Positions 12,424 to 16,374 of a stretch of 64,000 bases of DNA are shown piece after piece. The notes beneath the pieces are model-generated. The model ran no database searches and had not been told where the DNA came from. It saw nothing but the letters and a program-made list of their open reading frames with translations. The stretch is from Treponemataceae bacterium (GTDB taxonomy: Bacteria; Spirochaetota; Spirochaetia; Treponematales; Rectinemataceae): assembly GCA_963667725.2 (NCBI GenBank), contig CAXXHO010000003.1, positions 1,248,001 to 1,312,000 of the forward strand. The letters are read 5' to 3'. The stretch's first letter is position 1. Every line of letters starts with the position of its first letter. The position numbers were made by a program, and so were the translations under genes.

Positions 12424-12505
12424 AAAGATGCTGGATACGTGTTGACATAGCCTCCCGATAAGTATGAAATGTATTGTCTTTCGGCGAGATCAAAGGAGTT
12501 TTACA

Positions 12506-12697
12506 ATGATAGGAACGACGGAAATAATAGTGATCGTGGCGGTGATATTGGTGCTCTTCGGGGCTAGCGCCATCCCCAAGTTCGCCCGCTCGCTCGGCGA
12601 AGCCAAGAAGGAATTCTCCAAGGCTATGAAGGACGGGGAAAGCGCGCAGGAGACAGGTTCCGGAAAAGATGAAGGCAAGAAAGATTCAAAAGTCTAA
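12506..12697 (+). CDS. tatA: Twin-arginine translocase TatA
   Basis: N-terminal TM ending LFG followed by amphipathic IPKFARSLGEAKKEF; AAGGAG RBS. Confidence 0.92.
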   Translation: MIGTTEIIVIVAVILVLFGASAIPKFARSLGEAKKEFSKAMKDGESAQETGSGKDEGKKDSKV

Positions 12698-12719
12698 AAC
12701 CGGCGATCCGGAAAAGACG

Positions 12720-13469
12720 ATGACCTCAGACCTAAAAAACCCCGGCAAGGTCATGCCTTTCATCGAGCATGTGAGGGAACTGCGCAAGCTCATATTCATC
12801 TCCATGGGCTCTTTTCTCGCATGCGCCATCGCGTCGTTCATTTTTTCTGATAAAATAATAGGTCTTTTCACCAGGCAGTTCAACGCCGTATCCAGCGCCG
12901 TCGAAAGCAAGCTTGTGGTGACGACTATCATCGAAGGCTTTTCCTCGCAGATGAAGATCGCCGTCTACGCAGGAATTATCCTTTCCTCGCCCGTCCACAT
13001 TTTCAATATTCTGCGTTTCGTCTTTCCGGGAGTGGAAAAACGCCATCAGCGAGTGATCCTCTGGACTTTATTCTCCAGTCTTGTCCTGATCGTATTCGGG
13101 GCTTATCTCGCCTACTTCAGGATCGTCCCTCTCGCCATCAGCTTTCTGACGAATCCCTACTTCATTCCTAAGAATGTGGGCTATTTGCTCAATTATCAGG
13201 CGAATATTTTCTATGTGTTCTCCTTCATACTCTGGTCCGTGCTCGCGCTCCAGACGCCCCTCCTCATGGAAGTTCTTCTCATGCTGAATATTCTGAAACG
13301 CAAGTCCGTATACAAGGCGAGCCGTTTCATAATCGTGGCGATATTCATCGCGTCCGCGATCATCACGCCCCCCGATTTCATAAGCCAGCTGGGCGTCGCC
13401 CTTCCCTTGACCACCCTCTATTTTCTCGCCCTTCTGATCGCGAAGATTTTCAAATTCGGAGAAAAATGA
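12720..13469 (+). CDS. tatC: Twin-arginine translocase TatC
   Basis: MPFIEHVRELRK, EGF, six TMs, ITPPDFISQ. Confidence 0.92.
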   Translation: MTSDLKNPGKVMPFIEHVRELRKLIFISMGSFLACAIASFIFSDKIIGLFTRQFNAVSSAVESKLVVTTIIEGFSSQMKIAVYAGIILSSPVHIFNILRFVFPGVEKRHQRVILWTLFSSLVLIVFGAYLAYFRIVPLAISFLTNPYFIPKNVGYLLNYQANIFYVFSFILWSVLALQTPLLMEVLLMLNILKRKSVYKASRFIIVAIFIASAIITPPDFISQLGVALPLTTLYFLALLIAKIFKFGEK

Positions 13470-13798
13470 TGTTTGGCATAGGTTTTTCAGAATTAGCCAT
13501 TATCGTTCTCCTTATCATGATCGTCATACGTCCCGATGATTTGCCGGCTTTTTTCAGGAAACTTGGCCATTATTACGCGCAGGCAAAAAAGGTATTCAAG
13601 GAAATCACCGCCGTTAAGGACGATTTCATGAGGCAGATGGATATAACCGCTGCTATGCAGGATTCAGACAACCAAAAGACCGAAGAGAAGAAAACCGAGG
13701 CGCCCCCTCAAGCCTCTCCGTCACCGGAAAATCCTTCCAAGGATGATCCTGCGCGGGAAGAACTGGAAAAACTGGCCGAAGAAAGCCAAAGGGAATAA
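13466..13798 (+). CDS. tatB: Twin-arginine translocase TatB-like
   Basis: MFGIGFSELAIIVLLIMIVIRPDDLP resembles the TatB N-terminus; ATGA overlap with tatC. Confidence 0.8.
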   Translation: MMFGIGFSELAIIVLLIMIVIRPDDLPAFFRKLGHYYAQAKKVFKEITAVKDDFMRQMDITAAMQDSDNQKTEEKKTEAPPQASPSPENPSKDDPAREELEKLAEESQRE

Positions 13799-13849: not shown

Positions 13850-14377
13850 TTATTCGTTATGGCAGGTGTTGCAGTTGGCGAGTGTCTCGGCATGATGGCA
13901 GGAATAACAGTAATTGACATTCGGCTTGGCTGCGCCATCGTCAGCCTTGAACGGCACTTCGTGCGGAGTATGGCACTCAGCGCATTCCACGATAGTCTTC
14001 GATTCGTGCGGCACATATACATGGGGATTCGCTTTTTCATCCCACTCCGTCACATAATCCGCCGTTCTCTCCGCGAGTTTCTCGAAAGGACCGTGGCATT
14101 TCAGGCAATAAGCCGAATCCTTGACGACACTTTCATCGGTGGCGCTCGAAACGGCATCCGAGGCGGGCTCTTCGGCCGCCTCGCTCGCACCGCTTGTGGC
14201 GTCGGCCGGCTGTACCGTTGTCGGCGTAGCCTGGACCTGAATCGTCTGAATGCCGGAATCGTAAACAAATCCCGTATCCGATCGTAGGTCCGACGAAGCG
14301 TAGCCGAACATCACGGCCGAGAGCGAGACGGCCGCGGCAATCGCGCAGTTCCGCATTATTTTTTCATTGAAAAACAT
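13850..14377 (-). CDS. Small exported tetraheme cytochrome c
   Basis: Four CxxCH motifs (CLKCH, CAECH, CYSCH, CNTCH), NPH/PH distal His candidates, and an N-terminal hydrophobic signal. Confidence 0.88.
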   Translation of the reverse strand: MFFNEKIMRNCAIAAAVSLSAVMFGYASSDLRSDTGFVYDSGIQTIQVQATPTTVQPADATSGASEAAEEPASDAVSSATDESVVKDSAYCLKCHGPFEKLAERTADYVTEWDEKANPHVYVPHESKTIVECAECHTPHEVPFKADDGAAKPNVNYCYSCHHAETLANCNTCHNE

Positions 14378-14508: not shown

Positions 14509-16374
14509 TTATACAGACTCTTTTACGGCAGCGGCTCCGGCGATATATCCCTGGGTGAAGCAGCGGGCCAGACCGTGCTGGCTACATCCGGCCGCGGATT
14601 CGCCGCCGCAGTACAGGCCGGGAATCACTTCGCCGTCCATGCTCATGACCTGGCATTCCTGGCTGATTCTCAGGCCGGCGTAGGTATCGTGAACGGTGAT
14701 CGTAGCCCAGGCCGCGTAGAAAGGTCCCTCCGCTATCTTGTACTGGGGCTTCGGCTTATCGAAAGCCTCGTCCACGCCAAGATCCACCGCCTTATTGTAT
14801 TCGGCTACCGTCGCTTCAAGGTTGGCCGCGGGCATCTTCGCTTTCTGATAGGGACAGGCTTCGATCTTGGCCGCGAGTTCGGCGAGCGTGGGCGCGCTGA
14901 AGAAATAGTCGGGATGAACGGTTGTTCCGTCGATGACCCACTTCTCGCGCTTTACGGCCGCCGCGTCGAAGATGGCCCACTGAGGCCCTGCTGAGTAATC
15001 CGGAGCGGTAGAGCCTTCGTTGATGGCGAGGGCGGCGTCAGGATAGTTCATCGGGGCGTATTTTATGTTCTGGGCGTTGCGCCAATCGCCTTGGACGTAG
15101 GGCTTCAGGTATCCCTCGGTCGTTCCGTTCGGATAGCCGTCCTGCATCTCGTTGTAGAAGCGCTTGCCAACCTGATTGACGATGATAGCGTCCTGCCAGT
15201 TGCGGACATTCAGTCCCGTTGCCCTGACTTTCGGAAAGAGGGGGGACTCTTTCTTCCAGCCGACGTAGTTGGTCCTGGTGCCGATGATCGGGCGTTTTCT
15301 GAGAGCGCCGTTCCTGTCGAAGGTCTGGTTCGCCGTTCCCCAGAGGGTCGCGCCGATGGCCATGGCGGCGAGCTCGCCCGAAGCGTCCTGGGGCGAATAT
15401 TCGCCTCCGGCCAAGGGCATTTCCTCGGTGAGTCTGGGATCGAACATCCTGCGGAAATTGACGTGGCCCGTGCTTCCGCCGGTGCCGATGATAACGGCCT
15501 TCTTGGCTTTGATCGTCACTTCGGCGAGGTCGAGGCCCAGATTTCCGTCGGACCTAAAACTCTTGAGCGCAGTCGCGCTGCCGGGAAGAATCGTCGGAGT
15601 ATAGTTGGCCTGGATGCCCAATACCCTGCCGGAATCCGGACGTTCGCGGTAGATGGTGTTCATGTGGTAATTGAGCAGGAACTTCACGCCTGCCTTTCTG
15701 GCGCTGTCTTCCAGGGCGCGCATGAGAGCCGTACCGCCGGCTCCGGCAGGGCTTTCGGCGCTCTGTCCCTTGGTCCACACGCAATGGTGCTCGCGTTTCG
15801 CCGAAATTCCGACGGCATGGCCGCCGCTGTTATCGGGGGCTTTATCCACAAAAGGGACGCCCTGGGCGAGGAGGAACTCGAAAGTCTGTGCTTCGTTGTC
15901 GGCCAAGGCTCTCTGTACCGCCCTGTCGTTGTACCGGTAATCGGGCATGCCGCTCACTTCCACCACCGACCAGTCGGTGAGATCGCGGAACAGCGTCTCG
16001 GCATCGTCATTTATGCCGTATTTCTTCTGGAAGCTGGTTCCGCCTCCGAGGGGAACGTTGCCGCCCGAAATGATGGCATGACCGCCTATATCGTAATTCG
16101 CTTCCACGACGATGACGGACGCGCCCGCCTGAGCGGCCCTGATCGCGGCCGGAAGTCCGACGGCACCGGCTCCCAGCACCACGACGTCGGCCTCCAGATC
16201 CCATTCCCTGGGCAGATCGGCGGGGGTCGGCTTAACGGTTTTCGCCTCGGCGACTTTGCCGGTATCAGCGGCCAAGGGCTGAACTATCGCGGCTCCGGCC
16301 ACGACCGCCGCTCCGGTTCCGACAAGTTTCACGAACTCCCTGCGGCTGATTCCTTTTTTTTCGTTTTCCTGCAT
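14509..16374 (-). CDS. Tat-exported FAD-dependent oxidoreductase (flavocytochrome c / FAD_binding_2 family), substrate unknown
   Basis: SRREFVK twin-arginine signal, DVVVLGAGAVG Rossmann motif, VNQVGKRFYNE and IPGLYCGGE. Confidence 0.88.
   Translation of the reverse strand: MQENEKKGISRREFVKLVGTGAAVVAGAAIVQPLAADTGKVAEAKTVKPTPADLPREWDLEADVVVLGAGAVGLPAAIRAAQAGASVIVVEANYDIGGHAIISGGNVPLGGGTSFQKKYGINDDAETLFRDLTDWSVVEVSGMPDYRYNDRAVQRALADNEAQTFEFLLAQGVPFVDKAPDNSGGHAVGISAKREHHCVWTKGQSAESPAGAGGTALMRALEDSARKAGVKFLLNYHMNTIYRERPDSGRVLGIQANYTPTILPGSATALKSFRSDGNLGLDLAEVTIKAKKAVIIGTGGSTGHVNFRRMFDPRLTEEMPLAGGEYSPQDASGELAAMAIGATLWGTANQTFDRNGALRKRPIIGTRTNYVGWKKESPLFPKVRATGLNVRNWQDAIIVNQVGKRFYNEMQDGYPNGTTEGYLKPYVQGDWRNAQNIKYAPMNYPDAALAINEGSTAPDYSAGPQWAIFDAAAVKREKWVIDGTTVHPDYFFSAPTLAELAAKIEACPYQKAKMPAANLEATVAEYNKAVDLGVDEAFDKPKPQYKIAEGPFYAAWATITVHDTYAGLRISQECQVMSMDGEVIPGLYCGGESAAGCSQHGLARCFTQGYIAGAAAVKESV

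Follow-up and report, generated by a model that had tools for sequence, protein, structure and literature searches.

Covalent attachment of FMN by ApbE occurs at a short consensus, D-x-x-[ST]-G-A-[ST], and these seven residues suffice (PMC12052999). Replacement of the Asp by Ala has a minor effect and that of the Gly by Ala an effect of ~50%; Ser is a poorer acceptor than Thr, and loops are poorer sites than termini. Published surveys have detected flavinylated proteins chiefly by their folded domains or by an apbE gene nearby. FMN_red proteins become flavinylated at bare motifs of an unstructured C-terminal tail, as shown by co-expression and Ala mutants, and among verified members of FMN_red and Flavodoxin_4, the motif adjoins an existing flavin site (Huang et al. 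2024, PMC11334425). In trypanosome FRDg, the flavinylated motif is DGRSSAS, with Ser for Gly; the 9-residue motif alone was insufficient, and a hydrophobic residue located two positions further along may contribute (10.1101/2020.12.30.424822). In C. tetanomorphum RnfD, FMN is carried on Thr153 of DGVTTATP (PMC9588780). Listeria PplA is modified at two sites (PMC9973259), which are presumably the EVVSGAT and DTVSGAT found in its sequence. Split fumarate-reductase-like enzymes, in which a PF00890 flavoprotein is paired with a PF14537 cytochrome, were counted in 147 clusters, and for PF00890 enzymes cytochrome and flavinylation are described as modules that can stand in for each other (Meheust et al. 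2021, PMC8238504).

A tetraheme cytochrome gene in the 64,000-nucleotide stretch of spirochaete DNA analysed here (the window) encodes what is predicted to be both modules in a single carrier, which sets it apart from the PF00890 enzymes of that study. The 175-aa protein (13850..14377, minus strand; PF14537, E 3.2e-8, above the cut-off) consists, from N- to C-terminus, of a signal or anchor sequence, a motif-bearing low-complexity arm, and a heme domain. The signal peptide or membrane anchor covers approximately residues 1-28 (14294..14377, minus strand, with an estimated boundary) and forms a hydrophobic helix at residues 5-24 in an AlphaFold2 model, the one from the 40-row alignment described below. 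The cytochrome is presumably exported and anchored, and a rough pattern finds a lipobox-like Cys in 20 of 60 homologues. Motif 1, DATSGAS (residues 59-65; 14183..14203, minus strand), matches the strict ApbE consensus and offers Ser65 (codon 14183-14185, minus strand) as candidate acceptor. Motif 2, DAVSSAT (residues 74-80; 14138..14158, minus strand), is heme-proximal, has Ser for the consensus Gly, and offers Thr80 (codon 14138-14140, minus strand). The two together occupy exactly 14138-14203, at the residues given by the first-pass annotation, whose description of both motifs in a low-complexity linker ahead of a tetraheme domain is confirmed. That domain (residues 91-173; 13859..14107, minus strand) contains four CxxCH motifs, at residues 91, 132, 157, and 169, and four further His. 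All eight His are invariant across 40 aligned homologues, and the four extra ones are consistent with bis-His hemes. Among homologues with a named source, the nearest belong to Rectinemataceae and other Spirochaetales.

The arm is predicted to be disordered. In an AlphaFold2 model built from a 118-row alignment, the heme domain has a pLDDT of ~90 and residues 55-83, which include both motifs, are below 50; a 40-row alignment gave a poor model (mean pLDDT 54.9). Foldseek returned no match for the 40-row model and none at E 0.001 for the 118-row model. The sole fold match is a weak one to the heme domain of the flavocytochrome c3 structure 1QO8 (Z 3.0, rmsd 4.7, 66 residues aligned); flavocytochrome c3, of which Shewanella FccA is an example, is the fused counterpart of the split enzymes. 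An HMM search of the PDB with the cytochrome gave only matches of E 0.066 and 0.24, and the ESM Atlas only generic multiheme clusters. No folded FMN_bind domain was found around the motifs: Pfam finds no PF04205 in the cytochrome, which is not among the 15 PF04205 matches of the genome, and the segment is predicted to be disordered. No pocket for a flavin ring is predicted.

The cytochrome resembles several described systems in part. It shares with FMN_red one or two bare motifs outside FMN_bind in an unstructured segment; however, the FMN_red tail adjoins a conserved flavin pocket and its genes lie beside apbE, whereas the cytochrome has a tetraheme core, no predicted pocket, a distant apbE and, across the family, a motif mostly without Gly. 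Kinetoplastid FRDg has a bare motif with Ser for Gly at position 5 and its modification has been shown, but it is eukaryotic, carries a fused, cis-acting ApbE, and has no heme. The first-pass annotation knew of no characterised protein with this architecture. The idea of an FMN-multiheme hybrid as such was published earlier, for a multi-flavinylated Christensenellales RnfG with a multiheme domain, which is predicted to combine c-type hemes with covalent FMN in a single extracytosolic polypeptide (Meheust et al. 2021, PMC8238504); that protein, a prediction only, has folded FMN_bind domains, is part of an Rnf complex, and has no tie to a PF00890 enzyme. Among the matches listed from the openly accessible literature, and in passages of PMC4436053, 10.1101/2022.12.26.521950, and 10.1101/2023.01.13.524026, no small multiheme cytochrome carrying bare ApbE motifs was found.

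The motif is strongly conserved. A homologue search yielded 65 proteins, of which 61 have four CxxCH and, with the query, make up the 62 analysed. The motif was scored in the 60 residues ahead of heme I, in a strict form (D-x-x-[ST]-G-A-[ST]) and a loose form ([DE]xx[ST][GSA]A[ST]), and compared with 1000 composition-keeping shuffles. All 62 carry the loose form (shuffle mean 2.9, maximum 11) and 21 the strict one (shuffle maximum 3); 41 are without the strict consensus and 12 without even a form with G or S. Arm length and the residues between the motifs vary freely, so the expectation of the first-pass annotation that motifs might be kept while the remaining linker changes is borne out. Its view of motif 2 as the deviant copy is reversed by the alignment. 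Motif 1 columns (n=40) read D34/E3, S37, A25/G11/S3, and T25/S10, with Ser or Thr at column 65 in 35 of 40; motif 2 columns (n=40) read E21/D17, S38/T2, G16/S14/A10, A40, and S29/T11, making this the best conserved site, with Ala in 40/40 and Ser or Thr at column 80 in 40/40. Judged by these comparisons, the motif is under selection.

Since the first search could favour motif words, a second was made with the heme domain alone against 1.84 billion representatives, and the best 150 were scored, leaving out 11 short matches and one apparently frameshifted one. The motif is present in 13/13 of the top representatives having an N-terminus and in 2/124 of the more distant cytochromes among these 150. 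The two distant ones that have it are six-heme proteins whose N-termini are similar. The motif therefore appears nearly restricted to a spirochaete-like group of cytochromes. In a tree of 73 heme domains, which is poorly resolved, the motif clusters, with 4 changes against a shuffled mean of 17.6. Three motif-less cytochromes nest beside motif-bearing ones in this tree, and the arm motif would thus be dispensable in near kin. Among the six-heme relatives (L074, which is G051:C106, and proteins P0068 and P0069), a single motif lies ahead of an extra diheme module.

The enzyme needed for modification is at hand. An apbE gene, without which the first-pass reading would have fallen, is on the same contig (G000:C3:2326134-2327381), ~1 Mb from the cytochrome gene, and its product is a full-length PF02424 protein without stops (E 7.6e-93). 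ApbE appears to be intact: its nearest PDB relative is Listeria FmnB, and Ser207, His223, and Asp251 are spaced as the FmnB triad of PMC12052999. Its N-terminus is lipoprotein-like, and the N-termini of the two proteins suggest that ApbE and cytochrome share a compartment. ApbE was found in 9/9 other motif-bearing genomes, compared to four plus one weak match in the 12 genomes with non-spirochaete relatives (the cytochrome was read in all of these but L026); this, like the other genome contrasts here, sets one clade against unrelated, partly incomplete genomes in non-independent tests. Because 62/69 genomes of the family have ApbE, its co-occurrence does not discriminate; ApbE is simply necessary for flavinylation. 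For heme attachment, the same contig carries a CcsA-type PF01578 gene (E 8.4e-42) with a neighbour judged ResB-like by eye. Two more of the three PF01578 matches are on a foreign-looking contig, C4, and were not relied on.

Absence of the Gly need not prevent flavinylation. The first-pass annotation had counted Ser for Gly as a departure from consensus, and the flavinylated DGRSSAS of FRDg provides a precedent for it; the cytochrome motifs are trailed by acidic or small residues, unlike the hydrophobic residue of FRDg. At the position of the C. tetanomorphum DGVTTATP, the RnfD of the query genome reads DATSAATP, whose DATSAAT is also the most frequent motif of the cytochrome family, and Gly is at position 5 in 1/8 RnfD orthologues. 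Against such tolerance, folded FMN_bind domains of the genome keep the Gly in 14/15. On the strength of the sequence comparisons, covalent FMN on at least one cytochrome site is likely, and on both sites it is quite possible, if somewhat doubtful. If the arm is flavinylated, the working ApbE consensus widens to [DE]xx[ST][GSA]A[ST].

The presumed partner is encoded immediately upstream on the same strand. It is a 621-aa, twin-arginine FAD_binding_2 flavoprotein of the fumarate-reductase-like type (14509..16374, minus strand; PF00890, E 1.9e-36) that lacks FMN_bind; each of the four further FAD_binding_2-like proteins identified in the genome has this domain. The flavoprotein adjoins the cytochrome in 8/9 spirochaete loci (in the ninth the contig ends) and in two further loci, L073 and L074, and a related flavoprotein is matched in 9/13 non-spirochaete loci. 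No NCBIfam model above the cut-off assigns a substrate class such as fumarate, urocanate, or methacrylate, and the PDB relatives are distant; judging by the family, electron flow in the reductase direction is the default assumption. A tatA-tatC-tatB cluster (12464..13798, plus strand) converges on the cytochrome gene; in it, TatC matches PF00902 (E 3.4e-46), a TatB-like protein matches PF02416 weakly, and the first gene is taken to be tatA from its sequence pattern. At least one tat gene is present in 6/9 spirochaete loci. A simple pattern picked only three twin-arginine proteins from a heuristic gene set of the genome.

NapC/NirT is the usual quinol dehydrogenase for such cytochromes. Profile matches to it were found in none of 10 motif-bearing genomes, including that of the query, and in 9/12 comparison genomes, many of these matches being weak and partial and the contrast subject to the same limits as that for ApbE. 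Ndh2 is present in 9/9 motif genomes and so are RnfD-like genes (9/9). In the query genome, the Ndh2/DoxX fusion (G000:C3:2247299-2249317), whose gene adjoins that of a polyprenyl synthase, carries ATSAAS three times in an outward loop that follows its first membrane helix. When 120 matches were reduced to 103 distinct Ndh2 loops (6 unparsed, duplicates merged), the loose motif was found in 97/103 and the strict one in 1, with up to 9 copies. This Ndh2/DoxX fusion of the query genome matches the Ndh2 of the Listeria extracellular electron transfer (EET) locus with E 3e-14. The Listeria loop has AATSGAS and that of Enterococcus gilvus QVTTGAS and EATTAAT, both genes being beside apbE and pplA; Acetoanaerobium has DAVSAAT. 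The motif array in the loop is kept from spirochaetes to Bacillota, the Ndh2/DoxX fusions other than that of the query genome being at L117:4486-6372, L118:3342-5294, and L119. No published flavinylation of Ndh2 was found in the available portions of the literature searched. The likeness to the Listeria locus (Ndh2, FmnB, and PplA) lies in the Ndh2/DoxX gene beside polyprenyl synthase and in the FmnB-like ApbE; the differences are that the query genes are scattered and that the Listeria chain is described without such a cytochrome.

These features suggest a mechanism that we favour on balance, in which the hemes are connected to flavin-based carriers of the membrane through an arm that is likely flavinylated. 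ApbE would add FMN to Thr80 and probably to Ser65. The tethered FMNs would collect electrons from the Ndh2/DoxX loop or from Rnf, the proximal FMN would reduce heme I, and the hemes would deliver the electrons to the FAD of the neighbouring flavoprotein, giving the order membrane carrier, arm FMN, hemes, FAD. The first-pass annotation had both cofactors shuttling electrons to the flavoprotein; most likely the hemes, rather than the FMNs, are turned to the flavoprotein, and the FMN arm to the electron source in the membrane. Split flavocytochrome c occurs without the motif in other phyla, and the spirochaete version would be one fitted with a flavin adaptor in hosts with flavin-based periplasmic wiring. 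If true, this shows a way to plug a heme enzyme into a host lacking NapC/CymA, with both cofactors, heme and FMN, joined in one chain by a small soluble cytochrome. A flavin-arm cytochrome would also be a natural template for flavin-heme wires.

A different role for the same modification is unlikely but fits part of the evidence. The sites could be flavinylated and yet provide no entry point, the hemes taking quinol-linked electrons directly and the tags serving as a flavin reserve, a redox buffer, or a side branch. In Nitrospirota and deltaproteobacterial loci, flavoprotein orthologues of ~50% identity have cytochromes without the motif as partners, the tag is also on a TPR protein (see below), and its copy number ranges from 1 to 4 in the cytochromes and up to 9 in the Ndh2 loops. 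A UbiD/UbiA/UbiX-like cluster, which we take to be a quinone synthesis pathway, together with the polyprenyl synthase suggests a quinone pool in the query genome. However, the end of motif 2 is 10-12 residues from the first heme Cys in 54/61 homologues, a fixed distance with an invariant acceptor, and the search for NapC/NirT gave no candidate for reducing the hemes. Both points argue against this role.

The bare motif recurs on further likely periplasmic proteins of the genome. A Tat-signal 4Fe-4S subunit (G000:C5:973956-974669), encoded upstream of an aldehyde-oxidoreductase-like gene, has the C-terminus DANSGATVVSGATA; the motif is in the tail of 11/13 family orthologues, always with Gly, and makes this tail a strong candidate for a bare flavinylation site. 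An Oxidored_molyb lipoprotein (G000:C5:1274202-1275629), upstream of an ABC transporter, has DSTSAAS near its lipobox and one conserved CxxCH (CVSCH). Its motif is kept in the 3/3 orthologues found across 5 genomes, and the protein is possibly a second one with heme plus FMN. An exported TPR protein (G000:C5:296824-298407) ends in DATSGATE; it occurs in 59/69 family genomes and has no redox domain, and the tail motif is present in 16/27 complete orthologues among 30 retrieved (at most 4 in shuffles). Across the lineage, the motif tags several periplasmic proteins, of which one has no redox domain. Tentatively, the spirochaete periplasm may be wired by bare, domain-free FMN tags on flexible arms, with transfer from flavin to flavin starting at the multi-FMN Ndh2/DoxX loop; the recipients would be the tetraheme cytochrome, the Tat Fe-S subunit, the Oxidored_molyb lipoprotein, and perhaps the TPR adaptor, and the cytochrome would be the flavin-to-heme adaptor that replaces NapC/CymA. 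If so, the flavinylated proteome is much larger than surveys based on FMN_bind count.

A tag of this distribution might also be an O-glycosylation site or the site of another non-flavin modification, in which the acceptor would be either the near-invariant Ser of position 4 or the terminal Ser/Thr. Low-complexity linkers of Ala, Ser, and Thr, such as this one, are typical of bacterial O-glycosylation sites, position 4 is Ser in 97/100, the Gly is mostly lost, and the TPR tail keeps the motif without a redox domain. The genome has four Wzy_C (PF04932) matches, three of them above the cut-off, which makes an O-oligosaccharyltransferase possible. Against this, only 5/67 low-complexity-linker proteins on contigs C3 and C5 (a heuristic gene set) carry the motif, three of the five being redox proteins, so that it is no general linker feature; among linker proteins with a signal-like N-terminus, it is in 3/29. 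Furthermore, the seven-position grammar is that of the RnfD FMN site, the genome has no PMT or PMT_2 match, and no such spirochaete sequon was among the literature matches listed. Glycosylation is accordingly considered rather improbable, and flavinylation the better reading of the tag.

The grammar of the motif can be examined position by position. When positions 1-4 alone serve as the seed, Ser or Thr stands at position 7 in 122/136 cases, compared to a background of 24%, and position 5 is A in 61, G in 35, and S in 33. Across the family, the motif follows [DE]-A-[TV]-S-[AGS]-A-[ST] as its consensus; Gly is found in only 35/120 motif instances, and the commonest version is DATSAAT (21/120). 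When Pro is allowed at position 6, 50 of the 61 cytochromes scored have two copies, 7 have one, 3 have three, and one has four. The conservation of positions 2-4 (A-[TV]-S) and 6 beyond the strict need of ApbE, and the Pro at position 6 in 12/120 instances, could point to unmodified docking sequences, either for the flavoprotein, for a TPR or Tat chaperone, or for ApbE without turnover. Such a role is improbable: the free exchange of Ser and Thr, with a hydroxyl strictly kept at position 7, fits an acceptor, Pro at position 6 also occurs in an RnfD-like paralogue (DAISGPT), and a cognate ApbE is expected to modify a perfect DATSGAS.

A, S, T, D, and E are abundant in the linker. When the query arm was shuffled 200,000 times, 0.4% of the shuffles held one or more strict motifs and 0.007% held two or more copies of D-x-x-[ST]-[GS]-A-[ST], the latter a pattern picked post hoc. 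Many motif-less distant cytochromes have linkers that are equally A/T/P/S-rich and long. The Ser codons in the motifs alternate between AGC and TCN, and third positions differ; the motif is thus conserved at the protein level and is no DNA repeat, an origin that this codon variation rules out. Chance matches within a low-complexity linker are refuted by the shuffles, the column conservation, the codon switching, and the absence of the motif from similar distant linkers.

Several minor observations were made on other parts of the genome. A Tat-signal split-Soret-like cytochrome c (G000:C3:1956756-1959417), which scores below the NCBIfam cut-off, adjoins CcsBA-type maturation genes. Contig C4, which has a Ccm-type cluster, and the first 200 kb of C5 carry genes that look foreign by eye and are possibly bin contamination; genome contamination is 6.26%. 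The RnfG site (G000:C5:852317-852973) reads VIAITASTITS and is without the consensus Asp and Gly. DAVTGAT is found near the C-terminus of an exported protein encoded close to apbE (G000:C3:2328816-2329691), and DVVTGAT near that of another (C5:815129-815962). These two proteins, which have no Pfam or NCBIfam match, are candidates for unlisted ApbE substrates.
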